Part shown: one piece after another, positions 11,376 through 51,309 of the stretch
Layout: each line of letters begins with the position of its first letter
Position numbering within the stretch: the first letter of the stretch is position 1
DNA from: an uncultured Gammaproteobacteria bacterium
Lineage (GTDB): Bacteria > Patescibacteriota > Microgenomatia > UBA12405
NCBI GenBank assembly: GCA_964544275.1
Contig: CAZIZX010000005.1
Coordinates: 4,720 to 68,719 of the forward strand
Direction of reading: 5' to 3'
DNA length: 64,000 nucleotides
Notes under the pieces: model-generated
Seen by the model: only the letters and a program-made list of their open reading frames with translations
What the model was told of the DNA's origin: nothing
Database searches by the model: none
Position numbers and translations under genes: made by a program

Positions 11376-11378
11376 ATT

Positions 11379-13764: not shown

Positions 13765-13779
13765 ATGATATGAAAGTAA

Positions 13780-15573: not shown

Positions 15574-15580
15574 TAAGATA

Positions 15581-16123: not shown

Positions 16124-16145
16124 AAGGGAGAGGAAAATCAAGAAG

Positions 16146-16634: not shown

Positions 16635-16642
16635 GTGTGTTT

Positions 16643-17655: not shown

Positions 17656-18725
17656 CTGAAAGTGAGGCCTCGATTGATATTTTCGAAAGTAATCGAGGGA
17701 GTAACCTGAATAAAGCGAGCTTTCTGGTGAAGCTGCGAAATAGTGAAGGCACCAGAGTAACTAAACCCGGAACGGATACCTTTGTCGAGATTCGAGAGAA
17801 CATCGGAAACTAAGCCTTTGCAATCAGAAAGGGTTTCAATGCCCTCAACATAATTAACATAATCGGGGTGTTTTTGGGACGGATCTTTTTTGAATTGGCG
17901 GATTTTTTCTGTTTTTGAAGTAGAGCCATTGTAAGCTTTGAATTTTTTACCACCCACAACAACTATTCTGCCTGGTGTCTCGAGGGTACCAGAAAGAAGA
18001 AATCCGGTAGAAACGGCGGAGGCGCCAGCAGCCAGAGCTTTGACAATATCACCTGAGTTTTTGAGACCGCCATCAGCAATTACCGGGGTATTGGTTTTTT
18101 TGGCAACGGTAAATACGTCCATGATGGCAGTCAGTTGAGGTATGCCAGAACCGGTCTGGAGGCGGGTAAGGCAAATTGAACCAGGTCCGACACCGACACG
18201 AAGAGAGCTGGCCCCGGCTTTGATCAAATCGGAAGCAGCTTGACTGGTAGCGATAGCACCAGCAATAATTTCAATATCCTTGAATTGTTTTTTGGTTTGG
18301 CTGATAAAATTCAAGACTGATTCCAGGTGACCGTGAGCAACATCGACCAAAAAGGTACGAATGCCGATATTGTAAAGGGATTGGATTCGGGCCAGTTCAC
18401 CACTTTTGATGCCAACTGAGGGGATGGTGTGACCGTTGGCGTCCAAAACTTGTTTAATCTCCTTGACTATTTTGTCGGCGGTGTTAAAGCGAGGATAAAA
18501 ACTGGTAGCACCAAAACGAGACATAGCGATGGCCATATCGACTCCAGTAACGGTGTCCATATTAGTAGCAATGACGGGAAATTTAAGTGTAAGCTTGGGG
18601 GTTATGTGAGTAGAAAGATCAACATTTGCCCGTGAGTTAACGGCCGAACGCTGAGGAAGCAGAAGAACGTCGTTAAAAGTCAGAGCAAGGGGGATATTGT
18701 TGATCATACGAAATAAGTTTATCAC
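17652..18725 (-). CDS. IMP dehydrogenase / GMP reductase family protein (no CBS pair)
   Basis: N-terminal LTFNDVLLLP, catalytic loop GVGPGSICLTR, phosphate-binding GGLKNSGDIVKALAAGASAV. Confidence 0.8.
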   Translation of the reverse strand: MINLFRMINNIPLALTFNDVLLLPQRSAVNSRANVDLSTHITPKLTLKFPVIATNMDTVTGVDMAIAMSRFGATSFYPRFNTADKIVKEIKQVLDANGHTIPSVGIKSGELARIQSLYNIGIRTFLVDVAHGHLESVLNFISQTKKQFKDIEIIAGAIATSQAASDLIKAGASSLRVGVGPGSICLTRLQTGSGIPQLTAIMDVFTVAKKTNTPVIADGGLKNSGDIVKALAAGASAVSTGFLLSGTLETPGRIVVVGGKKFKAYNGSTSKTEKIRQFKKDPSQKHPDYVNYVEGIETLSDCKGLVSDVLSNLDKGIRSGFSYSGAFTISQLHQKARFIQVTPSITFENINRGLTFR

Positions 18726-18742
18726 GCAAGGTAAAATAGGTT

Positions 18743-20509
18743 ATGAAAAATAAATGGAACTTGGATGATATTGTAAGTCTGGAGGCTTACGATGAGCTTT
18801 ATAAAGCAGTCGAAAGAGAGATAGATGAAATTGACAAATGGGTAGAACAACTGGACCCTAGGATGAAGAAGGATGACTTTAAAAATATTATGGAAAAGCG
18901 GGAAAAACTGGAGGCAAAACTGGCCAGATTAGCCTATAGACCCCATTTGATGGAAGCGGTTGATCAGAAAAATCAAAGGGCGAAACAATTAAAAAGCAGG
19001 AGTGATGATTTGAGGATGAAGTGTGCACAAAAAGTGAGACGGATTGACCATTGGATAAAAGGTAAAGAGGTGGAAGGCAAAAGACAACTAGATGAAAAGA
19101 ATGCTAAAAGATTGTTTTCGGCAATAGCTGATTTGAAGTATGAATTGACTTATTCCCGAGGAGCAGCTAAGTATACACTGGAGGAGCGGGAAGAAGATAT
19201 TATCAGTAATAAGGACATTAATGGAGTGAGGGTGTTGACGGATTTGAGAACGATGATCGAGACTGAGTTTGAATATGAAATGAAAGAGGGTGAGGAAAAG
19301 AAAATAATTAAAACTCAGGCTGAGTTGATGGCATATGTTTACTCCCCTATTGCTGATAAACGGGAGGCGGCTTATAGGGCATTACTGGAAAAACACAAAG
19401 AAAACCTGGACAAGTTTTTTATGATTTATCAGGCAGTGGTAAAAAATTGGAGGTATGAGACAAAAATGAGAGGGTTTGAGGAAGCAATTTCGGCCAGAAA
19501 TTTCAACAATAGGGTTCCGGACAGGGCGGTTGAGGTTTTATTGGAAATATGTCGTCAGAATCGCCATATTTTTCAGGAGTTTTTTAAAATGAAGGCAAAG
19601 GATATGGGACTAAAAAAAATGCGAAGATTTGATATATACGCTCCAAGTGAATCAGTAACAAAAAAAATCGACTACAAAGAAGCTGAGAATGTCGTACTAG
19701 AATCATTTGGAAAATTTGGTGAAAGGTTTAGGAATTATGCTTGGCAAATTGTCGAGGAAAAGCATCTGGATTCGCACCCTGGGGCAACAAAAAGGAGTGG
19801 GGCTTTTTGTGCAACAGTGGAACCGTCAATAACGCCGTATGTGTTGATGAACTTTACTGGAAATATAAGGGATATGTCAGTTTTGGCCCACGAATTGGGA
19901 CATGGAGTTCATAGCTTGTATGCCAACAAACATTTTTACAGCACACAGCATGCCAACCTGCCTTTGGCAGAAACAGCTTCAACGCTGGGAGAAATGATCT
20001 TGTTTGAAACATTGTATGAACAAGAAAGAGACAAGGGAATAAAAAAGGCGATGCTGTCGGAAAAAATTGCTGATACTTATGCTTCGATACTAAGGCAAAA
20101 TTACTTCGTAGTTTTTGAAAAAAGGGTTCATGAACAAATAAGTAAAGGGCTGACGGCGGAGGAGGTGAGCGAAATGTGGATGAAAACACTTAGAGAGCAG
20201 TTTGGAGAGAGCGTGGAATTAGATCCGATTTTCAGGTACGAGTGGGCTTATATTCCCCATATAGTGGAAACACCATTTTACTGTTATGCTTATAATTTTG
20301 GCGAACTTTTGAGTTATTCTTTGTATTCGAGATACAAGGAGGAAGGTAAAAGTTTTATACCTAAAATAGAAAAGATTCTGGAAGCAGGCGGAGGGGAAGA
20401 CCCGATTTTAATTTTGGAGGATATTGGGGTAGATGTTAACAAGGCTGAGTTCTGGCAGAAAAGTTTTTCTATTATTAAAGACTGGGTGGAAAAACTAAAA
20501 GTGTTATAA
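18743..20509 (+). CDS. pepF: Oligoendopeptidase F family (M3B) metallopeptidase
   Basis: HELGHGVHSLY zinc motif, 588 aa. Confidence 0.85.
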   Translation: MKNKWNLDDIVSLEAYDELYKAVEREIDEIDKWVEQLDPRMKKDDFKNIMEKREKLEAKLARLAYRPHLMEAVDQKNQRAKQLKSRSDDLRMKCAQKVRRIDHWIKGKEVEGKRQLDEKNAKRLFSAIADLKYELTYSRGAAKYTLEEREEDIISNKDINGVRVLTDLRTMIETEFEYEMKEGEEKKIIKTQAELMAYVYSPIADKREAAYRALLEKHKENLDKFFMIYQAVVKNWRYETKMRGFEEAISARNFNNRVPDRAVEVLLEICRQNRHIFQEFFKMKAKDMGLKKMRRFDIYAPSESVTKKIDYKEAENVVLESFGKFGERFRNYAWQIVEEKHLDSHPGATKRSGAFCATVEPSITPYVLMNFTGNIRDMSVLAHELGHGVHSLYANKHFYSTQHANLPLAETASTLGEMILFETLYEQERDKGIKKAMLSEKIADTYASILRQNYFVVFEKRVHEQISKGLTAEEVSEMWMKTLREQFGESVELDPIFRYEWAYIPHIVETPFYCYAYNFGELLSYSLYSRYKEEGKSFIPKIEKILEAGGGEDPILILEDIGVDVNKAEFWQKSFSIIKDWVEKLKVL

Positions 20510-28938: not shown

Positions 28939-29847
28939 ATGGAACAACATCCGATACCTCAGCAGATTTCGTCCTACGAATTCAAGCTGGTGGGAGAAAT
29001 GACTTTAAAACAATTTGTGAAAGCGGCAGCAGGAGTGATTATTGCCTTGTTGATAAATGCCAGTGGAATCATCTTTTTTATAAAGTGGCCATTAATGTTA
29101 TTTTTTGGAGGAGGCGGACTATTGTTGGCGTTTGTCCCCTATGAGGATAGACCGCTGGAGACTTGGGTGATGGCGTTTGTCAGGTCGATATACTCACCAA
29201 CAATTTTCGTTTATAGAAAGAAAAAAACGATTAAGATAACCCCAGTTGAAGTCAAGAAGGAAGAGGAAAAGAAGGAGGTGGTTGAAGAAGAGAGCACAAA
29301 AGTTAAAAAGGACGAAAAGAAAGTAAGAGAGTTTATTTCGTCGTTACCTTCGGTAAAAAGAGAAGAAAAGAAAGAGGAAAAGGAAGAGGTGGTACTAATT
29401 AAAAAGGACGTGATTATAAAAGATGTAAATCCCGAAATTCAAGTTGATAAAAAAGCGACAGAGGCAAATGCCAGCAGTAACAAAGAAGAATGGAGAGATC
29501 AAAAAAGTGATTTAAATTTGCAAAGGAGAAGATTAGAAGCTACGGGCGAAACGTCTTTTGGAACTATCCCAATGCCAGACATTCCAGAAGTTGCCAACGT
29601 ATTAGTGGGAATGGCAACCGATGTTGACGGCAAGATAATTGATGGAGCGATAGTCGAAATTCAAGATGATGTGGGCAATCCAAGCCGAGTATTAAAAACG
29701 AATTCTTTGGGGCAATTTAGAACTTCAACTCCAATGGCAAACGGGAAATACTTAATTATAACGGAAAAAGAAGGTTATGATTTTCATCGAATAAGTGTCG
29801 AATTAAAGGGAGAAATAGTTCAACCAATAAAAATTATCAGCAAATAA
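28939..29847 (+). CDS. PrgI-family-like T4SS membrane protein with K/E-rich linker and C-terminal CarboxypepD_reg-like beta-sandwich
   Basis: N-terminal ~100 aa: EFKLVGEMTLKQF then two TM helices (AAAGVIIALLINASGIIFF, LMLFFGGGGLLLAFVPY), as in PrgI proteins that precede VirB4 in Gram-positive T4SS. 302 aa is longer than the typical ~120 aa. Confidence 0.55.
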   Translation: MEQHPIPQQISSYEFKLVGEMTLKQFVKAAAGVIIALLINASGIIFFIKWPLMLFFGGGGLLLAFVPYEDRPLETWVMAFVRSIYSPTIFVYRKKKTIKITPVEVKKEEEKKEVVEEESTKVKKDEKKVREFISSLPSVKREEKKEEKEEVVLIKKDVIIKDVNPEIQVDKKATEANASSNKEEWRDQKSDLNLQRRRLEATGETSFGTIPMPDIPEVANVLVGMATDVDGKIIDGAIVEIQDDVGNPSRVLKTNSLGQFRTSTPMANGKYLIITEKEGYDFHRISVELKGEIVQPIKIISK

Positions 29848-29879: not shown

Positions 29880-30587
29880 ATGCCAAGTGATCCTTTAAAA
29901 ATTGCCATAAAAGGAAGTACTCAAGAACATTTGCCAATCGAGGATGTGGTAGATGGTATTGTGGTGCTGAAAGACGGATCGTGCTCGATGGTTTTGCAAT
30001 TGTCGTCGGTGAACTTTGATTTGTTGTCGGAACGGGAACAATCAGCTTTGGTGTTTGCTTATGGCGGTATTTTGAATTCACTCAATTTCATGGTGCAGAT
30101 TATTATTCATTCAAACAGTAAAGATATTAGTGTATATTTAAAAAATTTAGCGGCAGCCCAGGAAAAACAAGAAAATCCGCAGTTAAAGGAACGAGTGGTG
30201 GCGTATCGTAAGTTCGTGGAGGAAACCGTAAAAAGAAACGATGTTCTGTCAAAGTCATTTTATGTGGCGATACCATTTTCTATAATGGAACTGGGAATCA
30301 GCAGCGCTAAAGGTCAAATATTTAATTCCCTACCCTTGCCCGGAAAAAGTAGCGGAGAGTTGCCATTTTCCAAAGAATATATTTTAGAAAAAGCTAAAGC
30401 TAGTTTGGAACCGAAAAAGGATCATTTGGTAAGATTATTTTCACGCTTGGGGCTGGACATAAAACCACTAGGGACAAAGGAGTTGATTGAGCTTTTTTAT
30501 AAAATATACAATGAAAGTACGGCGGTGAATCAAAAAATTCAAACGTTAAATTATAACGCACCAGTGGTAACAAGTACTGAAAAATAA
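29880..30587 (+). CDS. Hypothetical T4SS-associated protein (between PrgI-like and VirB4)
   Basis: Tightly packed in the operon; the N-terminal ~80 aa resemble the N-terminal region of the adjacent VirB4 only loosely. Confidence 0.4.
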   Translation: MPSDPLKIAIKGSTQEHLPIEDVVDGIVVLKDGSCSMVLQLSSVNFDLLSEREQSALVFAYGGILNSLNFMVQIIIHSNSKDISVYLKNLAAAQEKQENPQLKERVVAYRKFVEETVKRNDVLSKSFYVAIPFSIMELGISSAKGQIFNSLPLPGKSSGELPFSKEYILEKAKASLEPKKDHLVRLFSRLGLDIKPLGTKELIELFYKIYNESTAVNQKIQTLNYNAPVVTSTEK

Positions 30588-30590: not shown

Positions 30591-32999
30591 ATGGATTTTT
30601 TAAAAAAAATAATAAAGAAGGAAGAGAAGGCCGATATGCCGAAAGCTAGTGCTTCGGTGACGGCGAATAATAATGGAAGCAAGCCTTTTGAGGAAGGTTT
30701 GGTGTCGACAAAGGATATTATTGCACCATCAGCCATAGAGGTTGATTTTAACCACATAAGGATTGATGATAAATACTATCGGACATTGTTTGTGGCCGGG
30801 TATCCAAGATTTGTGGGAATAAACTGGTTGTCACCGCTAATTAACTTTGATGCTTCACTAAATGTGTCAATGTTTATTTACCCGACGGATGGGAAAGAAA
30901 TTTTGGATGATTTGAGAAGAAAAATTACGGAAATGGAGGCAGAGCTGAGTACAGATATTCAAAGAGGACGGATCGTGAATCCGGCTACTCAGGCTAAATT
31001 AGAAGATGCTTTGTCTTTGCAAGCAGACCTAGTCAAAGGGGAGGAGCGGTTTTTTCAATTCGGACTTTACATCACTATATCGGCGGAATCGGTGGAAGAG
31101 TTAGACCGGATAAATAAAAACATCGAAGCGTCTTTGGGAGCATTATTAATTATCAGCAAGAAAGCAACTCTTCAAATGGAAGATGGATTTATGACCACTC
31201 TACCCATATGCAGCGACAAACTCAGCATCACTAGGAACATGGACACGACCTCACTGGCAACAACCTTCCCATTTGTGTCGTCTGACTTGTCCGATAACAA
31301 AGGGATAATGTACGGAATAAACCAACACAACGGGTCGTTGGTCATTTTCGACCGATTCAGCATGCCGAATTATAATTCGGTAGTATTTGCTACGGCCGGT
31401 GCCGGTAAGTCCTACATGATTAAGCTGGAAGCAATCAGATCATTAATGTTTGATACAGACGTGATCGTGGTCGACCCTGAAAATGAATACAGAAGTTTGT
31501 GTGATGCGGCAGGCGGCCAGTACATTGCTTTTGGCTATAGTGAGAATTCTAAAATCAATCCATTTGATCTATCTTTGACAGTGGAAGAGGAAGGGGAAAA
31601 TTCGTTGAATTCCAAGATACTATCATTACATAAGTTGTTTAAGCTAATGGTGGGAGAAATGACGCCGATTGAGGAGTCAATTTTGGACCGGGCAATAATG
31701 GATGCTTATAAAATGAAGGGGATTACTCCAGATCCAGATACACAAAGTAAGGAATCTCCACTGATTGAGGATTTATATAAGTCGCTTATCGGAACAGAGA
31801 GCAAGGAAGCTCAGAGTTTGGCAGCCAGGTTAGAAAAATATATTAAGGGTTCTTTTGCGGGTATATTTAACCAAAAAACTACTGTAAATTTAAACAACCG
31901 GTTTGTGGTGTTTGGCATTAAAAACTTAGAAGAAAGTCTAAGACCAATTGCCATGCATATAATTCTGGACTACATCTGGACCACGGTTAAAAAAGAGCTT
32001 AAAAAGAGAATTATGATCGTGGATGAGGCCTGGTATTTGATGCAATATCCAGATTCGGCGGCGTTTTTGAGAGGGGTAGTTAAACGAGGTAGAAAATACT
32101 ACTTAGGAGTGACGACTATTACCCAGGATGTGGATGATTTTTTGGAAACACCGTATGGTAAGGAAATTGTGACCAACAGTTCAATACAGATATTGCTAAA
32201 GCAACACAGTGCGGCCATAGATAAAATTGGTGAGGTTTTTTATCTTTCTGAAGGTGAAAAACAATTATTGCTGACGGCGGACAAGGGAGAAGGTATTTTC
32301 TTTGCCGGGCAAAATCATGTGGCTATAAAAGTGATCGCTTCAGAAGATGAACACAAATTAATAACATCGAACCCAGAAGAGATATTGAAGATGAAGGCGG
32401 AGGGAAAGGTAGTAACAATGGAAAATAAAAACTTGCTTATTTCAAATCAAACACTGCCGATCAACCCAAGCAATATTCAAGTAGAAGAAGAGCCGGAGAA
32501 GGTTGTTTCTCCAGTAGTAGAAGTGAAGAATGAAATAAAACAAGCTGAGACAGGAAAAGGTGAGGAAAAGCCAATAGAAACAAAACCATTAATTGATAGT
32601 TCAAGTGCCCGGTTCAGAACAGAGGTGGTCGGAGGGGATGACGAAAATGAAGGATTGCTTCAAAGAAAAATTAATGAAATGGAAAAAGTTGAGCAGGATA
32701 AAATAGATGATTTTATCAGGCAAGAAGTAGAGGCAGTTAAAGATGAAGAAGAGGAAATACCCTTGAGAGAATCACAACCGACACCATCTTTTGAAGCGCC
32801 AAAGGTGGTAAAACTTGGAGGAGGAAATATCGGGAGTAAGCCAATTTTTGTCAGTCAAGAACCGAAAATACAACAACCCCCACAATTGAGTAATAAGCCT
32901 AAGCCGGATTTTGAAGAAAACAACCAAGATAAAAAGATAGATACCAATAAAGATGATAAAAACGATTATGACTCACTTTTCGGTGATGGAATTGTTTAA
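30591..32999 (+). CDS. virB4: VirB4/TraC/PrgJ-family type IV secretion ATPase with ~200-aa low-complexity C-terminal extension
   Basis: Walker A ATAGAGKSY, Walker B IMIVDEAWYLM. Overall 802 aa with CagE/TrbE/VirB4 domain order. E/K/P-rich tail from about aa 600. Confidence 0.85.
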   Translation: MDFLKKIIKKEEKADMPKASASVTANNNGSKPFEEGLVSTKDIIAPSAIEVDFNHIRIDDKYYRTLFVAGYPRFVGINWLSPLINFDASLNVSMFIYPTDGKEILDDLRRKITEMEAELSTDIQRGRIVNPATQAKLEDALSLQADLVKGEERFFQFGLYITISAESVEELDRINKNIEASLGALLIISKKATLQMEDGFMTTLPICSDKLSITRNMDTTSLATTFPFVSSDLSDNKGIMYGINQHNGSLVIFDRFSMPNYNSVVFATAGAGKSYMIKLEAIRSLMFDTDVIVVDPENEYRSLCDAAGGQYIAFGYSENSKINPFDLSLTVEEEGENSLNSKILSLHKLFKLMVGEMTPIEESILDRAIMDAYKMKGITPDPDTQSKESPLIEDLYKSLIGTESKEAQSLAARLEKYIKGSFAGIFNQKTTVNLNNRFVVFGIKNLEESLRPIAMHIILDYIWTTVKKELKKRIMIVDEAWYLMQYPDSAAFLRGVVKRGRKYYLGVTTITQDVDDFLETPYGKEIVTNSSIQILLKQHSAAIDKIGEVFYLSEGEKQLLLTADKGEGIFFAGQNHVAIKVIASEDEHKLITSNPEEILKMKAEGKVVTMENKNLLISNQTLPINPSNIQVEEEPEKVVSPVVEVKNEIKQAETGKGEEKPIETKPLIDSSSARFRTEVVGGDDENEGLLQRKINEMEKVEQDKIDDFIRQEVEAVKDEEEEIPLRESQPTPSFEAPKVVKLGGGNIGSKPIFVSQEPKIQQPPQLSNKPKPDFEENNQDKKIDTNKDDKNDYDSLFGDGIV

Positions 33000-33022: not shown

Positions 33023-35833
33023 TTGGTATCGATGAGCGGATTTAATGTTGCCAACATATCTTCTGTGGAAAATTGCCAATCACTGGCTCTGTGTTTAAGG
33101 GAACTAGATAAAACTTCTAATGTTAGACAAAATCTATATCTAGAAAATATTTTAGAAAGGGTATTTAGGGCTGGAGGATTTAGAGTAGATGTAAGAAAAG
33201 AATCGCTGACGGGAGTGGCCAAGGCTTTGGAGAGTCTGAGTCCGGATCAGGTCGAGAGGGTCAACAGGGTGCTTTTGGAAGAAATGGGGGCGATTGACGA
33301 AGCAACCGAAAAGGATTTGCAAAATGCAGTGGTACCAACCGCCCAACTGGAACAATTACTGAAAGAATATGAAGAACACCTGAAAAATGGTATGAGTCCA
33401 GGTGAAGCATTGGAGAAAATCACCGAAGCAAACAAGGGTATTGTGGCCAGATCTCAAATAGAGGATTTAATTAGAAGACAAAGCGAAGCTTATCAAAAAA
33501 TTGTTGATGATCTGAGGGAAGTTTCAGCAGAAAGCTTGGGAGAGGAAACCATAAAAGAATTAGCTAAAAAGACGGCAACAGAGGTGGCAGTGAGTAGTAA
33601 AGAGCTGGAGATCGAAATTAAGGCTGCCGGGCAGAGTGTTCCGTCGATAGTGGTTGAAAAATTAGCAGAGGAATTAAAAGAGGTGGGTGTACAGAGAATA
33701 CTGGAAAACAATATTTCGCGAGACGGTTTTGACAAAAAGGTGGAGAAGGCAGTTGAGGAAGTGAGTCAGGACTTAACCAAGCAAATAATAAAGCAATATG
33801 CAGAAGGAGCAAAAACAAGAATTGAGCTTCAGGTGGATATAAGAAAAAGAGCTTTTGAGATAACTGATAATTTATTGGCTGAGCTTCAATCTAGTGATCC
33901 GATACTGGCTGGGTTGGTGGAGAAAGCCGGGGTTGGTGTCAGGATGGAACTGGCCGACAGGATAAATCAGGAAATTATTCTGGGGCTAAGTGTTCCCGGA
34001 CAATTAGAGGAGAGGGTTGTATCTGAGATAAGCAGAGGCACTCCGTCCTTGGGAGAAGAACAGGTCGAAAGAGTTGAAATGGCAGTAAAGTCGATAAGAG
34101 TACAGGTAACAAGCTGGACTGAAAACAATAAAATTGAATTAACTAAACCACAGGGAGATTGGTTTGAAAGAAATATCGTTGATTCGTTTGTGGGAGAAAA
34201 TGGTCAGTTGCAAATAAACGAGTGGCGGGACGTAAGGCAATACGCAAAATTGGTAAGACAGATATATTACCCTTCGGACGGAAACCAGGTAGATGCATAC
34301 AAAAATGAGTCAATGGAACTTGCCAGAAGCAGGAATCAAAGTCCAGGAAAAATAGATAATGCATGGAACGATTTGAGAGGATTAACGGCGATGTTGCGGA
34401 TGAAACCGGCAGAACTAAATAATTTTATTAATAATTACAGGAATGCTCAGGAAAAATTGAAAGGTTTGAACCTACCGTTCAAAGTAGGTGAGTGCCGGGC
34501 CTTGGACGGTTTAATTAAAGCCATTGAAAGCAGTCCACAAACAAGAAATTTTTTGATTTATGCTCAGAAATACATTGCTCTGAACAATTCAATAAACAAG
34601 ATTGGAGCGACGATACTAACAAAAATTGGAGCTAAAGAAGTAGCGTTAAAAATGGTAGGGAAGCTGGGCGGGCAAGCGATGGTGGAATTTACCAAAAATG
34701 CTTTGGTGGTGTTTGCTGAACACGGGACAACAACTGGATTGAAGTTGATATTAAAAGGAATTGTGACAGGAGGAGTGAAGGCGGGGGCAGCAGGAGCCGG
34801 GGCTGGAGCGGGAGCAAGTGGAGGTGTGGCGGCAGCAGTAGCAGCTTTCCAAGCATTACCGGTGGTGGGACAAGTAATATTGTTGGTGGTTGGGGCAGTT
34901 GTTTTGATTAAGTCAGTGGTGGCTCCGTTGGTAAAAAAGATTAAGAAGGTGTTGGGATCGTTGAACTTGGAGTTGGGAATGACTAAATTTTTCAAGGAGA
35001 ATTTTGGTAATTTTGTAGGCGGAATATTAAATGGAGCCGTAAAAGTGGGAATGGTAGTGGTTGGCATGCCTGCTTTGATAATAGGCACAACGATGACTGC
35101 TTTTTTAACTCCAGTTTTAATAATTTTTTTTGCAGTATTCGTATTATATCAGTTCATTTTTTTGCCTAATTTGATTTCGAGTATAGTTCCACCAAGGTAC
35201 GCCGGGTCGGGGGCAGGGGAAGAAATCGGTGATGGTGGTTTTACCCCTTCTGAACCAATATATTCTGAGGATTGTGATAGTAGTCCGGCTTGCGCAATTA
35301 TTGAACATATACTGCATGATTTGGGTTACCAAAGAGCTGTTGGGCGAGATACAAGAGAACACAAGAAAAATGTTGATGAGATTGCAAGTAAGTTAAGAAA
35401 TTGGGACAGGACTTTTCCTGATTTTCCCAGTTTTAATTTGAATAGGTTTGTTGAAATTATGATAAGTAATTCAACGAATAACACCAGTGGTAGACCTTAT
35501 TTTCAATGTTTAGGGTTTTCTCTGGCGGCGGACTTAAATTTACCAAGAGGCAGGGAAATTAGTCATTATATGGCAGGTAATCATCCTGGTTGTATTTCAG
35601 TTGACCCAAAAAATGCTGGGGTTGGTGATCATATAATGTATATGGGACCTCATATTATGATCTTGTCAGTACTAAATAGTCCTGATGAATACGGAAAAAA
35701 AAGTGGTGTAATATCGGATGTAAACTATGATTACGAAGGAGCATTTAGGAATCGTTATTTTCCAGACTTCGATGAGTTTTTTAATAGTTTAAAAAGTAAT
35801 AAAGGGGCAGTTAAGATATTAAGATGCAAATAA
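33023..35833 (+). CDS. Large membrane protein: coiled-coil N-terminal half, Gly/Ala-rich TM cluster, C-terminal CHAP/NlpC-P60-like cysteine peptidase (cell-wall hydrolase) domain
   Basis: GAAGAGAGAGASGGVAAAVAAF and several TM helices (aa ~520-720). C-terminal YFQCLGFS (Cys) ... GDHIMYMGPHIMIL (His) is a papain-fold amidase pattern. Position after VirB4 resembles the PrgK/VirB1 role. Confidence 0.5.
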   Translation: MVSMSGFNVANISSVENCQSLALCLRELDKTSNVRQNLYLENILERVFRAGGFRVDVRKESLTGVAKALESLSPDQVERVNRVLLEEMGAIDEATEKDLQNAVVPTAQLEQLLKEYEEHLKNGMSPGEALEKITEANKGIVARSQIEDLIRRQSEAYQKIVDDLREVSAESLGEETIKELAKKTATEVAVSSKELEIEIKAAGQSVPSIVVEKLAEELKEVGVQRILENNISRDGFDKKVEKAVEEVSQDLTKQIIKQYAEGAKTRIELQVDIRKRAFEITDNLLAELQSSDPILAGLVEKAGVGVRMELADRINQEIILGLSVPGQLEERVVSEISRGTPSLGEEQVERVEMAVKSIRVQVTSWTENNKIELTKPQGDWFERNIVDSFVGENGQLQINEWRDVRQYAKLVRQIYYPSDGNQVDAYKNESMELARSRNQSPGKIDNAWNDLRGLTAMLRMKPAELNNFINNYRNAQEKLKGLNLPFKVGECRALDGLIKAIESSPQTRNFLIYAQKYIALNNSINKIGATILTKIGAKEVALKMVGKLGGQAMVEFTKNALVVFAEHGTTTGLKLILKGIVTGGVKAGAAGAGAGAGASGGVAAAVAAFQALPVVGQVILLVVGAVVLIKSVVAPLVKKIKKVLGSLNLELGMTKFFKENFGNFVGGILNGAVKVGMVVVGMPALIIGTTMTAFLTPVLIIFFAVFVLYQFIFLPNLISSIVPPRYAGSGAGEEIGDGGFTPSEPIYSEDCDSSPACAIIEHILHDLGYQRAVGRDTREHKKNVDEIASKLRNWDRTFPDFPSFNLNRFVEIMISNSTNNTSGRPYFQCLGFSLAADLNLPRGREISHYMAGNHPGCISVDPKNAGVGDHIMYMGPHIMILSVLNSPDEYGKKSGVISDVNYDYEGAFRNRYFPDFDEFFNSLKSNKGAVKILRCK

Positions 35834-36228
35834 GATTAATTAATAAAAAAATCTTATATATCGGGTTAGCTTTAGTATTCTTGCTAATCCTTCCTTGGGG
35901 AGGAGGCGGAAGTAAAGTAGAAAAAGACGAGACGGAATTGGGAGGTGGAGAGGTAATAATTGATCCAAATGATTATTCTGGATTCGGACCAACAGAAGAA
36001 GAGGCCTTAGAATTAATTGATGAATTCGAGTCGAACAAAAATGATTATCCTCTGTGGAATAAACTACCTTATGAAGGAAGAGGGTATAAAATAAGCAAAT
36101 ATTCAAAACCGCTGACGGTGGTGGTTTATCCGATAGGGTTAGATAAAGAAGTGGTAGAGAGGGAGGTAAGGCAATGGATTAAAGATAATGGCGGGGATGA
36201 GGTAAGGCATCAAATAGAATGGCGGTAA
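35824..36228 (+). CDS. Small secreted/membrane-anchored protein, paralog A
   Basis: N-terminal TM/signal; shares DYPLW..LPY.G.GY...Y...L.VV....DKE.VE..V..WIK.NG.D...H.IEW with the next gene. Confidence 0.5.
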   Translation: MQIRLINKKILYIGLALVFLLILPWGGGGSKVEKDETELGGGEVIIDPNDYSGFGPTEEEALELIDEFESNKNDYPLWNKLPYEGRGYKISKYSKPLTVVVYPIGLDKEVVEREVRQWIKDNGGDEVRHQIEWR

Positions 36229-36272
36229 TATATTTAATTTGAATTTTTAAATTAAATCCCTAGAATTAGATA

Positions 36273-36680
36273 ATGAATGGGAGTTTTATGAAAAGGTACT
36301 TTTTGATAATAGTGTTGACCTTTGTAGCTACTGGAATGGTGGTGACTAGACTTAAATACCAAGAAGATGGTTTTGAAAGAGAAGTTATTGAGACTAAAAA
36401 CTTAAATACAGAAATTGAGAGTGAACCAGACTTGATAATTACTCCGACTGAGGCGGTTGAGTCGGAAGACGAAGTGTTTGAACTTGACCCCGATTATCCT
36501 TTATGGAGATCTTTGCCTTATTACGGTAAAGGTTATATTGTAGATAGATATGTTGAAAGTTTAAAATTGGTAGTAAAAATTAAAGGTATTGATAAAGAAA
36601 TAGTGGAAGAGGACGTTTATGAATGGATTAAAGAAAATGGAGTTGATCCAGAGAGTCACACAATCGAATGGGAGGATTAA
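36273..36680 (+). CDS. Small secreted/membrane-anchored protein, paralog B
   Basis: Same conserved C-terminal motif as paralog A. Its stop overlaps the dnaN stop on the opposite strand. Confidence 0.5.
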   Translation: MNGSFMKRYFLIIVLTFVATGMVVTRLKYQEDGFEREVIETKNLNTEIESEPDLIITPTEAVESEDEVFELDPDYPLWRSLPYYGKGYIVDRYVESLKLVVKIKGIDKEIVEEDVYEWIKENGVDPESHTIEWED

Positions 36681-37795
36681 TCCTGAAGACGGACCGGCAT
36701 GATGATATGGGTAAATTGAGGGTCGGACTGATCACGGAAGAGAGCTGGGGAAAGAGATTCATTCAGTTCAATGACAAGTTCATCACCTTTGCAGACAGAA
36801 AGGAAGTCGGAAACAAATTTGTAGTTGAAAGCAATGTCTAAATTACCACCTTCAACCTTAGCTTCGACAGTGGTTTTGTTTTGACCAATTTGAGGGGCAT
36901 TGGCTGAAACTTCAACGTGAGAACCGGAAACGCCAAAGCGAATGATATTGGCAGACTCGCGAGCAAAAACGGAGGCAATTCTGACAGCTTGAGATAATTC
37001 TTCTTTGTTTAAGGTGAGTCTGGTATTAAAGGAGGAAGGTATTATTCGCTGATAATCAGGAAACTCACCTTCCACCAGACGAGAGGCAAGCTCTAGGCCG
37101 TCTAGGACGAAAATTAATTGATGTTCGTCTACTGATAGACCTAAAGTAAGCTTTTTGTCGTTTCTGGAGAGTTTAGTGATTTCAGAGAGGCTTTTGCCGG
37201 GGATCAAAAGGGTGAGATTGTCGGAGGGTAGAGAAATTGGATTAACTAATTTTATTTCTTTGAGAGAAAGTCGAAAGCCATCAGTAGCAGCTAAAGTCAG
37301 CTGATTGCTGGTAAAACGACAAAGAACAGCGGTTAAGACAGGGCGAGTATCATCGGTGGCGGCAGAAAAAACGATTTGACTGACTGACTCCCGAAGTATT
37401 GACATATCCAGATCGATGGACTGGTTAGCATCAAGAGAAGGGGTTAGTGGAAAATCACCGGGAGGAGTAATGGTAAAAGTGGATTGAGCTTTGGGAGAAG
37501 AGACAGTTAACAGATTACTGGTGTTAACTTCGAGATCAAGACGGCCGGGTGGTAGGTAAGAGACAAACTCGGTAATTTCTTTGGCCGGAATAGTCAAACT
37601 TCCCTCAGAATCAATCTTGGCACCAATCCAACAGCTGATACCTAATTCCAAGTTGGTAGCCGATAATTTTAGTTGGCCGTTGTTGGTAGAAAGAAAAATA
37701 TTACTCAAAATTGGAAGTTGGGATCGGGTTGAAACAAAGCGAGAAACATTACTTAAAGCAGTGGAAAAGTTTTCCTGTAGAAGGGAGAGTTTCAT
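36677..37795 (-). CDS. dnaN: DNA polymerase III beta sliding clamp
   Basis: MKLSLLQENFSTALSNVSRFVS..., 372 aa, three-domain clamp pattern. Confidence 0.9.
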   Translation of the reverse strand: MKLSLLQENFSTALSNVSRFVSTRSQLPILSNIFLSTNNGQLKLSATNLELGISCWIGAKIDSEGSLTIPAKEITEFVSYLPPGRLDLEVNTSNLLTVSSPKAQSTFTITPPGDFPLTPSLDANQSIDLDMSILRESVSQIVFSAATDDTRPVLTAVLCRFTSNQLTLAATDGFRLSLKEIKLVNPISLPSDNLTLLIPGKSLSEITKLSRNDKKLTLGLSVDEHQLIFVLDGLELASRLVEGEFPDYQRIIPSSFNTRLTLNKEELSQAVRIASVFARESANIIRFGVSGSHVEVSANAPQIGQNKTTVEAKVEGGNLDIAFNYKFVSDFLSVCKGDELVIELNESLSPALFRDQSDPQFTHIIMPVRLQD

Positions 37796-38117: not shown

Positions 38118-39464
38118 TTAAAATTTAGACTTGATTTGGTTAATAAGTGTACGGGTTTGTGGGTTTGTGGAAAAGGAGGTATGGATTTTGTCTCGGGCGT
38201 GCATAATACTGGTGTGATCACGTCCACCCAAAAGTTGACCAACTTCATCGAGAGCCAGATTGATGTGGGTGAGAAGTAAATAGGCGGTGATATGGCGGGC
38301 AAAGACAAGATCTTTTTTTCGACTTTTACCACAAAGCTCACCGGTTTTTAGATTAAAATGTTTGGCACAAATTGAGATGAGGTGGCGAGGGTTGGTATTA
38401 AGGGAAGAAGTGGAGGTTGAAGAGGTAGATGAGGGGTTAAAGAGGTTTTGGATAAACTGAAGATCAATCTCCCCCACCCTTTGGGTTTGAGATTGAACAG
38501 AAATTTCTTGCAACTTACCTTCGATGTCTCTAATATTGGAGTCTAAATTTTCGGCCAAAAAAGAGACGGCGTCTGGAGTGATGTTAATTCCCTTGTCTTG
38601 AGCCTTCTGGTTAATAATGGCGGTTCTCATTTCAAAGTCAGGCAGTTGAATGTCAACAGTTAATCCGCCCATAAAACGGGAGACAAGTCGGTCTTCGAGA
38701 TCTTTGATTTCGCTGGGTTTGCGGTCGGAAGTAAGAATTACCTGTTTGCCGGACATGTGGAGGGCATTAAAGGTGTGAAAAAATTCTTCCTGAATGTACT
38801 CTTTGCCGGCAATGAATTGAATATCATCAACTAAGATACAGTCGAGGTGGCGGTATTTTTCTTTGAACTGGTTAATATTTTTGGAACGGAGGGCGAAGAT
38901 GAGTTCATTACCAAAGGTTTCGGCGGGGAAATAACGAACTTTAAACGAGGGGTTGTTTTTGAGTAATTCATGGCCAATGGCTTGCATGAGATGGGTTTTA
39001 CCGACCCCTACTCCGCCCCAGATGAAGAAGGGGTTGTAGGTGGCGCCGGGATTTTTGACAATACCCTGGGCGGCAGCGAAGGCAAAATTATTACTATTGC
39101 CGACAATTAAATTATCGAAGGTGTATTTGGGGTGAAGGTTGGCTGATGGAGCTGGAGTGAGTAGAGGTTGGTTATAAGAAAAGAGAGGGGCGGGAGTGGT
39201 GTTATTGTCAGTTTTTATCGGTTCCTGGACAATAAAGGCGAGGGAGTTGTCGGTTTTGGTTTGGTTGTCGAGAGCACTTTTGAAAAGATCGTAGTAGCGT
39301 TTTTTATTGATATCAACCAGGTAGGAATTGGAACAAGAAATAGTAGCAGTACTGTTTTTGTAGGCAATTAACTGAGTGTTGGCAACAAAAGTTTGGAAGA
39401 CAGCAGGAGCCAGGACGACTTTTAATTCTTCCTGAGTATTTTTCCAAATACGATCAATGTCCAT
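38118..39464 (-). CDS. dnaA: Chromosomal replication initiator protein DnaA
   Basis: AAA+ Walker A GGVGVGKTHLMQAIGHE, C-terminal DnaA-box-binding domain. Start placed at MDIDRIWKNTQEELK (39464) rather than the ORF-track start 39551. Confidence 0.9.
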   Translation of the reverse strand: MDIDRIWKNTQEELKVVLAPAVFQTFVANTQLIAYKNSTATISCSNSYLVDINKKRYYDLFKSALDNQTKTDNSLAFIVQEPIKTDNNTTPAPLFSYNQPLLTPAPSANLHPKYTFDNLIVGNSNNFAFAAAQGIVKNPGATYNPFFIWGGVGVGKTHLMQAIGHELLKNNPSFKVRYFPAETFGNELIFALRSKNINQFKEKYRHLDCILVDDIQFIAGKEYIQEEFFHTFNALHMSGKQVILTSDRKPSEIKDLEDRLVSRFMGGLTVDIQLPDFEMRTAIINQKAQDKGINITPDAVSFLAENLDSNIRDIEGKLQEISVQSQTQRVGEIDLQFIQNLFNPSSTSSTSTSSLNTNPRHLISICAKHFNLKTGELCGKSRKKDLVFARHITAYLLLTHINLALDEVGQLLGGRDHTSIMHARDKIHTSFSTNPQTRTLINQIKSKF

Positions 39465-39519
39465 AATATTGGTTGTAAGACAGGCAGATTTGAGGCTGTC
39501 AGAGGCAGGAAAAATTAAC

Positions 39520-39528
39520 TTATCCACA
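39520..39528. promoter_or_regulatory. Consensus DnaA box TTATCCACA upstream of dnaA (a second box TGTGGATAT lies at 39608-39616 upstream of rpmH)
   Basis: Exact 9-mer match in the divergent dnaA/rpmH promoter region. Confidence 0.5.
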
Positions 39529-39631
39529 TTGATGATATAAGAGTTTTCCACAAAAGAAAAGATATCAAAGAAGAGTTGGTTTGGAAATTTGCAAATATAA
39601 TCTAAGGTGTGGATATGTTAAAATAACCGCT

Positions 39632-47634: not shown

Positions 47635-49617
47635 ATGAAGAAAAGAAATAGTTGGCAGGAGAAGATACAAAAGTTTTTTTTGGGTGAGGTTGATAATAAG
47701 AAAAAAGAGCCAAAAAAAAATGACGATTTGGGTTTGCCCAAGGAAATAATGGATAGGTTACCCAAAGGGACAAAGATCAAGAAAGTTAAGGTTGGTCCGG
47801 CTCAAATTTTGAGGTTTTTGGTGTATTTGGTTTTGGGGTTTTGGTTACTGTCGAGCTTGAGACAGATGTTTGTATCAGAGGAAATGGTGCAGGTGCCTTT
47901 GTCGAGAGTGATTGAAACCATAAAAAACGAGGAGGCTAGTAAGGTGACGGTAATGGATGATGAAATTTTGGTGGAATTGAAGGAAGGGGGGACGGTGCTG
48001 ATGGCTTCAAAGGAACCAGGTTCATCAATGACGGAGATCCTGCAAAGAGAAAATATAGATATTTCAAATATTGAGTTTGAAATTGAAAACAGGCGGGGCT
48101 GGAAGCTGATAGGAGATATTTTTAGCTTATTGTTGACAGTGGGATTACCTTTGTTGTTCATTATCTGGTTTCTGGGCAGACAGACAGGTGGGTCGGGTGG
48201 CGGGATGTTTGGTTTTGGTAAATCGACGGCTAAGTTATTTGTGAAGGGTAAGCAGAACTTAAGCTTTAAAGATGTGGCCGGGGTGACTGAAGCAAAAAAT
48301 GATTTGGAGGAAATTGTTGATTTTTTGAAACATCCGGAAAAGTATAAAAAAGTGGGAGCAAGGGCTCCTAAAGGAGTGCTTTTGGTGGGCCCAGCGGGGG
48401 TAGGAAAGACGCTTTTGGCCAAAGCGGTGGCAGGGGAGGCAGATGTGCCGTTTTATTCAATGGCGGGCTCTGAGTTCATGGAGATGTTGGTGGGAGTAGG
48501 GGCGAGTAGAGTAAGGGATTTATTCGGGACGGCCAAAAAAGCAGGGAAGGCAATTATTTTTATTGATGAGATTGATGCTATCGGTAGAATGAGAGGAGGG
48601 CTAGATGGAGGTCACGGTGAAAGAGAGCAGACTTTGAACCAAATATTGGTAGAGATGGATGGTTTTGAGGCTAATACAGCAGTGGTGGTGTTGGCGGCTA
48701 CTAACAGAGGTGATTTGTTAGATCCAGCTTTGTTGAGGCCAGGCAGATTTGATCGAAGAGTAATTTTGGAAATGCCGGATATTGAAGCTCGGAAGGAGAT
48801 TATTAAAATTCATGCTAAAGGTAAGCCTTTTGATGAGACAGTAAATTGGGAGGCAGTGGCCAGGAGAACGGTGGGGTTTTCGGGAGCAGATCTGGAAAAT
48901 ATGTTGAATGAAGCGGCAATATCGGCGGCCAGGCAAAATAATACCAAGATATTTATGGCGGATATTGAAGATGCGGCTTTGAAGGTAAAATTGGGAGCAG
49001 AAAAGAGAAGGCAACAGAGCGAGGAGGACAGGTTGATGACGGCTTATCATGAAGCAGGGCATGCAATGGTAAATTATGTTGAAGATTTGGATCCGGTACA
49101 CCGAATTTCAATAGTATCTCGAGGAATGGCATTGGGCTATACACTAATACCGCCAAAGAAAGACAGGGTACATGAGACCAAACAGAGACTGATAAAGCAA
49201 ATGGCGATGGCGATGGGAGGAAGGGCGGCCGAGGAACTGGTATTTGGAGACATTACTACCGGAGCGGCTTCGGATATATCGCATGCAACCAAAATTGCCA
49301 GAGATATGGTAGTGGAGTGGGGAATGTCGGACTTGGGGCCAGTAAATTATGGGCCGCAGGTTGACGTGAATGATTTTGGTAAGGCATATCTGGAACCGTC
49401 AAAAATTTCCGACATGATGATGTCGAGAGTGGACGAAGAAATTAAAAAATTAGTGGGAACCGCTTTGGATGAGGCAAGGAGAGTGTTGAAAGAAAACCGA
49501 GCCAGTTTGGATGAAATTGCCAAAGTGCTGGTGGAGAAAGAGAGCCTGGATGAAGAGGAGTTTGAAGCTTTGGTAAAAAAGGGAAAGAAGAAGGGCGGCA
49601 AAGACTTACAGGCTTGA
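47635..49617 (+). CDS. ftsH: ATP-dependent zinc metalloprotease FtsH
   Basis: Walker A GPAGVGKT, second region of homology, HEAGHAM zinc motif, two N-terminal TM helices. Confidence 0.9.
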   Translation: MKKRNSWQEKIQKFFLGEVDNKKKEPKKNDDLGLPKEIMDRLPKGTKIKKVKVGPAQILRFLVYLVLGFWLLSSLRQMFVSEEMVQVPLSRVIETIKNEEASKVTVMDDEILVELKEGGTVLMASKEPGSSMTEILQRENIDISNIEFEIENRRGWKLIGDIFSLLLTVGLPLLFIIWFLGRQTGGSGGGMFGFGKSTAKLFVKGKQNLSFKDVAGVTEAKNDLEEIVDFLKHPEKYKKVGARAPKGVLLVGPAGVGKTLLAKAVAGEADVPFYSMAGSEFMEMLVGVGASRVRDLFGTAKKAGKAIIFIDEIDAIGRMRGGLDGGHGEREQTLNQILVEMDGFEANTAVVVLAATNRGDLLDPALLRPGRFDRRVILEMPDIEARKEIIKIHAKGKPFDETVNWEAVARRTVGFSGADLENMLNEAAISAARQNNTKIFMADIEDAALKVKLGAEKRRQQSEEDRLMTAYHEAGHAMVNYVEDLDPVHRISIVSRGMALGYTLIPPKKDRVHETKQRLIKQMAMAMGGRAAEELVFGDITTGAASDISHATKIARDMVVEWGMSDLGPVNYGPQVDVNDFGKAYLEPSKISDMMMSRVDEEIKKLVGTALDEARRVLKENRASLDEIAKVLVEKESLDEEEFEALVKKGKKKGGKDLQA

Positions 49618-51309
49618 TTCTTCCAAGTTAATAATGCGCTGAAGAATAGCTAGGGAGGCCAAATAGACGGGTTCAACGCCGTTGAGTGAAAGGCTGTGAG
49701 AACCGAGATTTTTAGCTTTGGAGTAGGGGGTGTCGGAAGTATAGTTGAGGATACCGATATCAAAGGGAGCACTGTTGAGGTCGACAACGGTATCTTTGGG
49801 GGTTTGTTGGTCATAGGTGGCTTCGGTGACGGCGCTAAGAAAAGGGCCGGATTCCATCTCGATAACGGTGAGGTTATTTTCAGAATATTTTTGGAGAAGG
49901 GCTTCATTTTCTAGAAAAGTACCCAGGACCGAGACGGCTTTTTGGTGAGTAAGGATGGAACCCTGGTGGTTGGAAAAAGGAAAGAAAGAATTAAAACAAT
50001 TATTGAACATGTAGGTGTTTTGGGTGTGTTCGTCAAAAACAACGCGAGGGATTTGGATGTCACCAATTTCACTGTTGAGAACAGCGGCTTTGCCTAAAAT
50101 GTAAACGCCTTTGATTTGGTGAACGTTTTCAAGAATTTCATTTAAAATGTGGTAAGCCGAGAAGCCCAGCGGGTAGTTGATGTTGAAAATAAGAGCGTTT
50201 GAACGTTGGAGTGTTTGTCTTTTGGTAATTTTGAGGCGGGAGTCAAGGTGACGGGATTGAGCCAGATTTTTCAGCGGGAAAATTTGGGTATTAATATCTA
50301 AATAATGAGCACTGGGGATGGAGAGTGACTTTAGCTGGGATTGGAGTTTTTGGAATAAAATTTGGTTGGAGGTGGACTGGAGATAGAACTTGGAAGCGTA
50401 ATAAAGGAAGTCATTGGGATGGAGAAAATTTTCGCGGGCTTGAATTTGCTGCCAGGTTTGATATAAGTCGGGATGGTTTGGTCGGATGAGTTTGATAATG
50501 TCTTTTTGGTTTTGGATGGCGAAACCAGTGATTAAGTTAAGCAGGCTATGGGAGTTGCTGGAAACAAAATAAATTTTTTGGCGGGATATATGAAAAGTGT
50601 TGGAGGTGGTGGCGGCAATATTTTTCCACCAGCGCTGGGTAGCTTTGGTATAGTCAATCCAGGAACCGGCGAGAAGCTGAAGGCGAAGATTGGCTTTACG
50701 GTTATAAATGCGCTTGAGACGGATTTTCCAGTTGGTTCCCAGGGCGGTAATCAGGCGTTGCCAGTCATCGGCAGAAATGTTTAAGGAGAGGTGGAGGGTT
50801 TGGTTTTTGAGGGCGGTGGCTACTTTGTCGTAGGTTTTGAATTTAGAGGTGATCAGCTGGTGAAATTTGTTCCATTCATGTTGGTAGGCGATAAGTAAAT
50901 TGACAAGGTCGTCAACGTCGGAAATGGAGCTGGCAAAACAGGCGAGAACACCAGAAGTTTGGTTGAAATGCATGGAGCGGCGGCGGGCAGGTGAGATGAC
51001 ACGGAGCCAGGAAGTAACGTTAGGGTAGCCGGCTTTGGTAAAAACTTCGGGAGTTTGGCCGATAATTAATTTTTGGGTCAGGTCGATAACCAGAGGCAGA
51101 CGAAAAACGGAATAAATAAGAGCGGAGGTGTCGATAATATTGGGATCGGAGCCGTAGGGATGAAGGATGGGTTCCATCTTGAGGTGAGTGTTGGTGAGGG
51201 AGTTGACGGTGAGTTCAAGAGTGCTTTGGAGAGCGGAGCGATAGGTGCGTAAATGGAGATCAATAGATTCGATGGTCGGAGGCATGTAAAAATTATAGCG
51301 TAAAGTCAA
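49606..51309 (-). CDS. Hypothetical protein with C-terminal PNP_UDP_1 (nucleoside phosphorylase/nucleosidase) fold; AMP-nucleosidase-like architecture
   Basis: C-terminal GVYILGKAAVLNS...TVIEMESGPFLSAV resembles the EMES region of the PNP/UDP family. N-terminal ~300 aa unrecognised. Confidence 0.4.
   Translation of the reverse strand: MTLRYNFYMPPTIESIDLHLRTYRSALQSTLELTVNSLTNTHLKMEPILHPYGSDPNIIDTSALIYSVFRLPLVIDLTQKLIIGQTPEVFTKAGYPNVTSWLRVISPARRRSMHFNQTSGVLACFASSISDVDDLVNLLIAYQHEWNKFHQLITSKFKTYDKVATALKNQTLHLSLNISADDWQRLITALGTNWKIRLKRIYNRKANLRLQLLAGSWIDYTKATQRWWKNIAATTSNTFHISRQKIYFVSSNSHSLLNLITGFAIQNQKDIIKLIRPNHPDLYQTWQQIQARENFLHPNDFLYYASKFYLQSTSNQILFQKLQSQLKSLSIPSAHYLDINTQIFPLKNLAQSRHLDSRLKITKRQTLQRSNALIFNINYPLGFSAYHILNEILENVHQIKGVYILGKAAVLNSEIGDIQIPRVVFDEHTQNTYMFNNCFNSFFPFSNHQGSILTHQKAVSVLGTFLENEALLQKYSENNLTVIEMESGPFLSAVTEATYDQQTPKDTVVDLNSAPFDIGILNYTSDTPYSKAKNLGSHSLSLNGVEPVYLASLAILQRIINLEESSL

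Follow-up and report, generated by a model that had tools for sequence, protein, structure and literature searches.

Two paralogous genes at the end of a secretion gene cluster

Two small genes on the plus strand, A (35824..36228, 134 amino acids, aa) and B (36273..36680, 135 aa), lie at the downstream end of a type IV secretion system (T4SS) gene cluster on contig CAZIZX010000005.1; the whole stretch of 64,000 nucleotides (nt) analysed here is referred to as the window. The cluster, on the same strand, opens with the gene for a PrgI/VirB3-like membrane protein (28939..29847) that ends in a CarboxypepD_reg-like immunoglobulin (Ig) domain (Pfam PrgI 25.9 bits, just below the gathering score of 27; CarboxypepD_reg E 3e-5). 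There follow the genes for a TrsD/TraC-N-like protein resembling the N-terminal part of VirB4 (29880..30587; NCBIfam TrsD E 1e-7, VirB4 N-terminal models E 1e-6), the orthologs of which carry a precomputed PF26593 TraC-like match, for a VirB4-like T4SS ATPase (30591..32999; NCBIfam NF045971, the CD1110 family, 400 bits with a cut-off of 325; Pfam P-loop_TraG E 1e-31, plus CagE_TrbE_VirB), and for a large protein of 936 aa with a C-terminal CHAP-like Cys/His peptidoglycan hydrolase domain (33023..35833). The last of these open reading frames (ORFs) stops at 35833, and its 10-nt overlap with A agrees with the coordinates given in an earlier reading of the bare sequence (the sequence-only reading). 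Gene A occupies the slot directly after the hydrolase (slot 1, the “hydrolase-partner” slot), while B is of a type present in all sampled Shapirobacteria loci. On the minus strand, convergent with B, lie dnaN (36677..37795, DNA polymerase III beta clamp, with all three Pfam DNA_pol3_beta domains) and, next after it, dnaA (38118-39551, Pfam Bac_DnaA).

A and B are paralogs. BLASTP aligned them without gaps with 38 of 77 positions identical (49%, E 9e-23), and their identity at full length is 38%, near the roughly 40% first estimated and far beyond chance. The motif that had been read from the two translations, DYPLW..LPY.G.GY...Y...L.VV...G.DKE.VE..V..WIK.NG.D...H.IEW, was found in both proteins. 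Orthologs of A (P0003-P0005) and of B are present in three other species, and the ratio of nonsynonymous to synonymous substitution rates (dN/dS) in the domains of A and B is about 0.05-0.30, with dS near saturation; both are therefore taken as real genes, with their domain under purifying selection. Among the four species the A domain is 76-92% identical (dN/dS 0.05-0.15), and the B domain is 56-68% identical in the more distant pairs (dN/dS 0.18-0.30), so that the A domain is the better conserved of the two, while the anchors and linkers of both proteins evolve fast. For B, the start at ATG 36273 is supported by the N-terminus MN/QxSF[WM]xKY conserved in relatives; an alternative ATG at 36288 has the better Shine-Dalgarno-like sequence (GGGAG, at a distance of 5 nt), and translation from it yields the protein of 130 aa that is on record (P0002).

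Monomer models of A and B were built with AlphaFold2 (AF2) from alignments of 89-94 sequences. The model of A has a transmembrane (TM) helix at residues 8-22 (35845-35889), disorder at 27-44, a helix at 58-74, and then strands 83-85, 88-95 and 98-103, helix 108-121 and strand 130-133, which make up a predicted beta-beta-beta-alpha-beta domain at residues ~74-134 (36043-36225), with a mean predicted local distance difference test (pLDDT) score of 93-96 in blocks from residue 81 on. In the model of B, a TM helix at residues 5-30 (36285-36362) and disorder at 37-55 are followed by low confidence to about residue 70 and by the same beta-beta-beta-alpha-beta unit at 83-134 (mean pLDDT 94-96 from residue 81 on), the family domain spanning residues ~74-135 (36492-36677); unlike A, B has no long helix preceding the domain. 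Both linkers are rich in Asp and Glu, and the N-terminal TM segment and acidic linker noted from the translations thus reappear in both models as a hydrophobic helix followed by an acidic disordered stretch. No lipobox Cys occurs in the sequence of A or B, and the N-termini look like uncleaved signal anchors.

The duplication that gave rise to the pair had been called old. Each of the four species of the window clade has both A and B; the loci of this clade are the window, L001, L002-4, L005/12 and L006 (L numbers denote related loci). In a rough neighbour-joining (NJ) tree of the domain, A groups with P0006, P0011, P0029 and others, and B with the single copies of other Shapirobacteria. Given that A and B fall in different deep subfamilies of this tree, we regard the duplication as old; the possibility that A is a recent lineage-specific duplicate of B was rejected, since A clusters with a separate subfamily. 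Members of the A subfamily in L042-L046 also follow a window-like CHAP-like domain.

The protein family and its genomic context

An exhaustive hidden Markov model (HMM) search of 1.84 billion cluster representatives (50% identity clusters) exposed a family of 271 representatives at E<=1e-3, 65 of them at E<=1e-10, for which word-indexed homolog searches were insensitive (5, 87 and 6 matches). Nearly all of the 154 members examined have 100-250 aa, a hydrophobic N-terminal helix and the C-terminal domain, in which both prolines of YPLW..LPY, Tyr93 and Trp118 (A numbering) are near-invariant. Longer members carry an Ig-like domain inserted between the anchor and the family domain, which fits an extracytoplasmic location of the latter. 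One member, P0118 (279 aa), is a natural fusion with two tandem family domains in one chain behind an Ig-like domain, and hints that two domains may act side by side, as A and B might. The sole source names of members are “hypothetical protein” and Candidatus Shapirobacteria, and a scan of genome collections found them mostly in Shapirobacteria or “Patescibacteria group” metagenome-assembled genomes; any taxonomic range past these labels is taken from context only.

Searches of A and B against Pfam (E<=0.1), NCBIfam and PHROGs matched no family, a Pfam scan of 100 family members gave no Pfam family recurring in more than two of them, and the family profile matched nothing under E 0.4 among PDB sequences. 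With Foldseek, the best PDB match of the A/B domain had an E of 0.3, and only weak generic alpha/beta sandwiches were returned. The fold-search lists repeatedly hold EscJ, PrgK, SpoIIIAG/AF, FliF and the C-terminal domains of cation diffusion facilitator (CDF) transporters. We treat this as a lead and not as a result: for a two-layer sandwich of 55 aa, the scores obtained with the ring-building motif (EscJ/PrgK, SpoIIIAG/AF/AH, FliF) and with the CDF C-terminal domains do not rise above noise, and in B the helix that would have to come first in the alpha-beta-beta-alpha-beta arrangement of that motif is missing. The family is unnamed and is a candidate for a new Pfam-type family definition.

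To place the family in its surroundings, 46 related loci were retrieved and their neighbouring genes placed by tblastn and domain HMMs, and context was counted over the 23 distinct loci in which the relevant flank reached at least 5 kb. Every one of them, like the window, has VirB4 in the cluster that contains the family gene, and the association persists where dnaN is only 35-48% identical to that of the window. The gene order is a 5'-3' exonuclease (minus strand), the PrgI/VirB3-like, TrsD/TraC-N-like and VirB4 genes, and the gene for a large polytopic hydrolase-bearing protein; then comes the family gene, preceded by at most one other small gene and usually followed by the convergent dnaN and dnaA. 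The family gene is therefore usually the last of the cluster, tail-to-tail with dnaN, and in several lineages there is an overlap or abutment of 4-10 nt with the T4SS-cluster gene before it. This synteny bears out the placement of the pair at the end of a T4SS-like module, as well as the expectation that the domain would follow VirB4 and hydrolase genes elsewhere: homologs are plentiful, and all those sampled stand in the same context. The PrgI-like gene has the equal position in every related locus compared; its CarboxypepD_reg-like Ig extension is also present in the orthologs of L001, L005, L010 and L042.

The loci that depart from the usual order are informative. In L034 the family gene has been relocated and is still directly upstream of PrgI, and in L043/44 its convergent neighbour is a type IV coupling protein (T4CP)-like ATPase (TrwB_AAD_bind), not dnaN; these neighbours tie the family gene to T4SS genes rather than to dnaN. 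In L007/8, too, dnaN is not the neighbour, and the family gene still follows the large hydrolase protein. We infer that the family is a fixed part of a chromosomal, origin-adjacent, monoderm-type T4SS cluster (like the mating-pair-formation class MPF-FATA) of Microgenomatia-type Patescibacteria.

Two of the departures brought further genes to light. The T4CP-like ATPase (L043 3754-6084 and L044 2095-4425, both minus strand) has 776 aa and matches TrwB_AAD_bind, DUF87 and DUF8128. In L007/L008, which belong to one Shapirobacteria genome, a gene for a protein-kinase-domain protein of ~4,400 aa (11152-20363, minus strand) follows the cluster instead of dnaN.

The stop codons of B and dnaN overlap, as had been noticed from the sequence, and the arrangement recurs in distant lineages. 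The TAA of B (36678-36680) and that of dnaN (36677-36679 on the minus strand) share nucleotides within ATTAA (36676..36680), an overlap of 4 nt between the two genes. The same 4-nt overlap is found in L001, L002, L005 and L040, and overlaps of 17 nt in L026, L032/33, L038 and L039 and of 29 nt in L029; the genes are 2 to 6 nt apart in L027/28, L030/31, L035 and L037. Larger gaps occur only with an interposed gene, such as a small lipoprotein gene in several Shapirobacteria loci. No terminator-like hairpin was found near the B/dnaN junction, and promoter and terminator scans over 28.5-38.2 kb of the window gave counts equal to those expected from shuffled sequence. The overlap together with the missing hairpin fits genome compaction and probable antisense read-through.

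In many Shapirobacteria loci, a conserved gene for this small lipoprotein (87-98 aa, with a lipobox and a C-terminal ...VTGMFSG.TLYVD) separates the family gene from dnaN (L008 10416-10679, L010 10306-10578, L014 8217-8501, L017 8225-8512, L018 7788-8084, L019 8204-8479, L020 8204-8482, L042 8970-9254), and the gene is absent from the window and its close relatives. On public metagenome-assembled contigs, several loci with a Patescibacteria-type T4SS-dnaN-dnaA arrangement are labelled “uncultured Gammaproteobacteria” (L012, L014, L016, L020) or “Candidatus Methanoperedens sp.” (L018); these organism labels cannot be right, which points to default labelling or mis-binning.

A second T4SS-related locus lies ~21 kb from the VirB4 cluster, on the minus strand of the window. 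It consists of six tandem genes for VirB2-like pilins (57979-60363; Pfam T4SS_pilin 29-50 bits, gathering score 26.6) and, after this array, the gene for a protein of 857 aa with a C-terminal SLT lytic-transglycosylase domain (55367-57940). A 567-aa protein encoded at 49606-51309 (minus strand) matches DUF6909 along its full length with 556 bits, and between its gene and the SLT/pilin locus are two ORFs of 749 aa (51354-53603, plus strand) and 538 aa (53729-55345, minus strand), for which no family match was obtained. The sole Rfam match in the window is a tRNA-Ile.

Joint exchange of the hydrolase domain and the gene that follows it

The 936-aa protein consists of a helical N-terminal region, a polytopic TM region at about residues 600-770 (hydropathy segments at residues 601, 664 and 686) and the hydrolase domain at about 750-936, and it stands in the place expected for a VirB6/VirB1-like component. 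It has no direct match in Pfam, CHAP (PF05257) included, so that the original label of the protein as CHAP could not be confirmed in this way. However, relatives in L027, L029 and L036 pass the CHAP gathering score (33-37 bits, against 26), and hhalign aligned the C-terminus of the window clade with the CHAP-positive relatives at a probability of 92% (E 5e-7), with FQC and GD..H in register; the name “CHAP-like” is reasonable but indirect.

Other relatives of the large protein carry a Peptidase_C39_2-like or an M23 domain at the same place. A B-type gene is at its position in all Shapirobacteria loci sampled, whatever the hydrolase class, while the gene directly after the hydrolase differs class by class: an A-type gene follows the CHAP-like domain, a gene for a protein here called U follows the C39_2-like domain, and a gene for a protein of ~310 aa follows the M23 domain. 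The slot-1 proteins of other Shapirobacteria are different, TM-anchored proteins. The C-terminus of U (~130 aa, encoded at 9615-10004 in L009) aligns to the family in register with an hhalign probability of 49% (E 1.7e-4), and U may be a diverged family paralog.

The hydrolase class and the slot-1 gene switch together, in discordance with the VirB4 tree, where M23-type L010 is sister to C39-type L019 (bootstrap 100) and M23-type L017 is sister to C39-type L008 (bootstrap 95). In the comparison of L010 (6409-9959) with L019 (4073-7854), the large proteins share 70% identity in residues 1-706 but no relationship in the hydrolase domain, nor do the genes that come next; in B and the following lipoprotein the identity is again 65-75%. 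The third case lies within the CHAP-like class. Between L001 (~9400-10280) and L005, identity is 88-99% in PrgI, TrsD, VirB4, B, dnaN and the N-terminal and TM parts of the large protein, but drops to 44% for the hydrolase domain and to 54% for A. The tract of divergence begins near codon 708 of the large gene and ends near codon 85-100 of A, which puts the breakpoint within A, where its conserved domain starts or shortly beyond. Three independent cassette swaps, with L017 against L008 as the remaining one, were thus seen, each with both flanks conserved.

As the occupant of slot 1 varies with the class of hydrolase, A is likely to be a partner of the CHAP-like hydrolase. In the layout of polymorphic toxins and their immunity genes, a conserved N-terminal part is joined to a variable C-terminal enzymatic domain and followed by a variable small gene, and immunity domains normally diverge along with their toxins. 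On such a pattern, A would be the cognate immunity protein or inhibitor of the upstream hydrolase domain, shielding the cell's own wall while the hydrolase attacks the wall of a host bacterium, and B would be a diverged paralog with another role. The start of A lies within the 3' end of the hydrolase gene (overlaps of 4-10 nt are seen in orthologous loci), the slot gene changed with the hydrolase class in the three swaps while the flanks were kept, and the slot protein is predicted to be membrane-anchored with its domain outside, as expected of a protein directed against a wall-active enzyme; the separate SLT-domain protein by the pilin array could then serve the housekeeping VirB1 role.

Against this, the A domain keeps an identity of 76-92% among CHAP-like subtypes whose own identity is only ~41% (between the window and L001, 81% for the A domain and 41% for the CHAP-like domain), and with the L001/L005 breakpoint inside A the co-transfer may only mirror where homology permits crossover. 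The hydrolase, moreover, is fused to a polytopic membrane protein, so that its delivery to another cell would be hypothetical, and B has the same fold and is independent of the hydrolase class. In favour of an immunity role, T4SS-linked effector-immunity pairs are known in Xanthomonas (PMC10933484), and these X-Tfe/X-Tfi pairs resemble the present locus in that a conserved carrier bears a variable C-terminal wall-degrading domain, directly followed by a small envelope protein that changes with it. They differ in that the hydrolase here belongs to a polytopic membrane protein and not to a soluble cargo with a T4SS signal, that the globular domain of A is conserved across hydrolase subtypes, and that toxicity and neutralisation are only putative here. 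VirB1-like hydrolases of Gram-positive systems, furthermore, are described as functioning without immunity proteins (PMC12857230). We consider an immunity function of A unlikely. For B, the suggestion made in the sequence-only reading that these could be immunity proteins does not hold, since the B type is constant across hydrolase classes; for A it is possible, as the slot co-varies with the hydrolase, though weakened by the conservation of the A domain. Since the A domain is far more conserved than the CHAP-like domain and the L001/L005 breakpoint falls inside A, a role of A as a class-matched adaptor or regulator is favoured.

Possible roles of A and B at the secretion machine

Taking these data together, with moderate confidence we read A and B as Sec-inserted accessory T4SS subunits of the wall zone, B being the constant one and A the partner of the hydrolase. 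Each protein would be inserted via Sec/YidC with a short cytoplasmic N-terminus and one TM helix, and a flexible tether of 35-50 aa, acidic or rich in Pro and Thr, would hold the small rigid beta-beta-beta-alpha-beta domain (~55 aa) beyond the membrane, within the wall zone that surrounds the secretion channel. The outside location is deduced from the charge distribution of A, the Pro/Thr-rich linkers and the Ig-like inserts of long members. B would be the constant subunit, its type being kept under any hydrolase; A is probably translationally coupled to the large hydrolase gene, and its most likely task is to position or regulate the CHAP-like hydrolase. Jointly, A and B would take the role of the paired bitopic VirB8-like proteins of Gram-positive conjugation systems, that of a wall-zone scaffold contacting a VirB1-like hydrolase, with an unrelated fold.

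The comparison with VirB8 is one of position and topology. The NTF2-like domain of VirB8 has roughly 120-140 aa, whereas A and B have a beta-beta-beta-alpha-beta unit of ~55 aa, and PDB profile and Foldseek searches gave no sequence or fold match of the A/B domain to VirB8-like structures. Since the NTF2 fold is absent, membership in VirB8 is not claimed, and the likeness is an analogy. A and B do share with VirB8 the location in a T4SS gene cluster near VirB4 and a VirB1-like hydrolase. The closest functional analogs are the VirB8-like proteins of Gram-positive systems, PrgL/PrgD of pCF10 and TraM/TraH of pIP501. These are anchored by a single N-terminal TM segment, have their C-terminal domain outside the cell in the wall zone, are often present as two paralogs, multimerise, and interact with VirB1-like hydrolases (PMC12857230). 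A and B are like them in the position in a T4SS operon and in the pairing, and would be like them also in the predicted topology and the putative link to a hydrolase.

The T4SS cluster itself and its origin-adjacent location are already known (PMC12102498). In that work on patescibacterial systems (Quinonero-Coronel et al. 2025), TrsD is reported as the commonest T4SS component of Patescibacteria, the cluster of Microgenomatia lies near dnaA/dnaN, VirB2-like pilin arrays are described for Microgenomatia, VirB6 homologs are few in that class, VirB8 homologs can hardly be detected in Patescibacteria outside the class ABY1, which leaves this role vacant, and a cultivated Saccharimonadia species reportedly cannot grow epibiotically without its T4SS genes (PMC12102498). 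The window agrees with this picture in having the VirB3/PrgI-like, TrsD and VirB4 genes, the proximity of dnaA/dnaN and a pilin array elsewhere. In the portions of the same article consulted (PMC12102498), small proteins of the A/B type are not named, and genes without a profile match are drawn unannotated. The portions of PMC12102498 and PMC12857230 consulted held no mention of the family, of its constant terminal position, of the split into constant and cassette genes or of the joint exchange of hydrolase and slot-1 gene; no wider literature search for the family was made.

Several points weigh against assigning A and B to the secretion machine. The association of A and B with it is predicted from genomic context, and conserved synteny near oriC in compact genomes could partly be frozen gene order. 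K/R residues flank the TM helix of B on both sides, so that its topology is ambiguous by the positive-inside rule. Many lineages have only one detectable family member, so that the pair is not universal, and the taxon sampling consists of loci returned by word-based and pattern-based retrieval and is no census.

The first of these points leads to a second alternative, in which the family members would be envelope proteins of a general kind with no part in secretion, such as factors for wall binding or division, and their position next to T4SS genes and dnaN would reflect an inherited oriC gene order. Indeed, the whole neighbourhood is syntenic (5'-3' exonuclease, T4SS genes, dnaN, dnaA, rnpA, yidC and Wzy/Polysacc_synt genes), and the tie of the family to the T4SS is one of context rather than of function. 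But the relocated gene of L034 still adjoins PrgI, the loci without a dnaN neighbour (L043/44, L007/8) keep the gene after the large hydrolase protein, with the T4CP-like ATPase facing it in L043/44, and the overlap or abutment with the preceding T4SS-cluster gene recurs in several lineages; we hold this alternative to be quite improbable.

Known T4SS substrates are recruited from the cytoplasm, whereas an N-terminal hydrophobic anchor directs a protein to Sec/YidC. It is hence very unlikely that A and B leave the cell as cargo (secreted substrates, pilus-tip proteins or released adhesin adaptors), since such a signal-anchor helix is present in A, B and nearly all of the 154 members examined: the position of the genes at the end of the T4SS cluster, the presence of a pilin array in the genome and a conceivable signal-peptidase site in some A orthologs (small residues after the hydrophobic stretch, GGG/GS in the window and ALS/G in L001) would suit cargo, but in B-type proteins a basic juxtamembrane motif is conserved and no cleavage site is plausible, the strict conservation in one or two copies and the strong purifying selection on the domain are unlike variable effector repertoires, and A and B do not match the T4SS_pilin model (PF18895/PF04956) that detects six other genes of the window. 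The proposal of secreted substrates, the lead idea of the sequence-only reading, and its proposal of pilus-tip proteins are consequently not supported.

For A and B as accessory subunits of the wall zone, a bolder version may be put forward, which we regard as speculative and rather unlikely. The family would be the missing wall-zone part of the Microgenomatia T4SS, standing in for VirB8 without being homologous to it and forming, with a new minimal fold, an oligomer round the channel, and the hydrolase domain with its slot-1 partner would be a host-range module, in which the epibiont exchanges a polymorphic wall-breaching enzyme and its cognate regulator or immunity protein by recombination to match the cell walls of different host bacteria.

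The family is a concrete candidate for one undetected envelope-spanning part of the T4SS in Microgenomatia. The exchange of the hydrolase together with the next gene suggests diversifying pressure on that part of the machine, possibly tied to the cell-wall type of the host.

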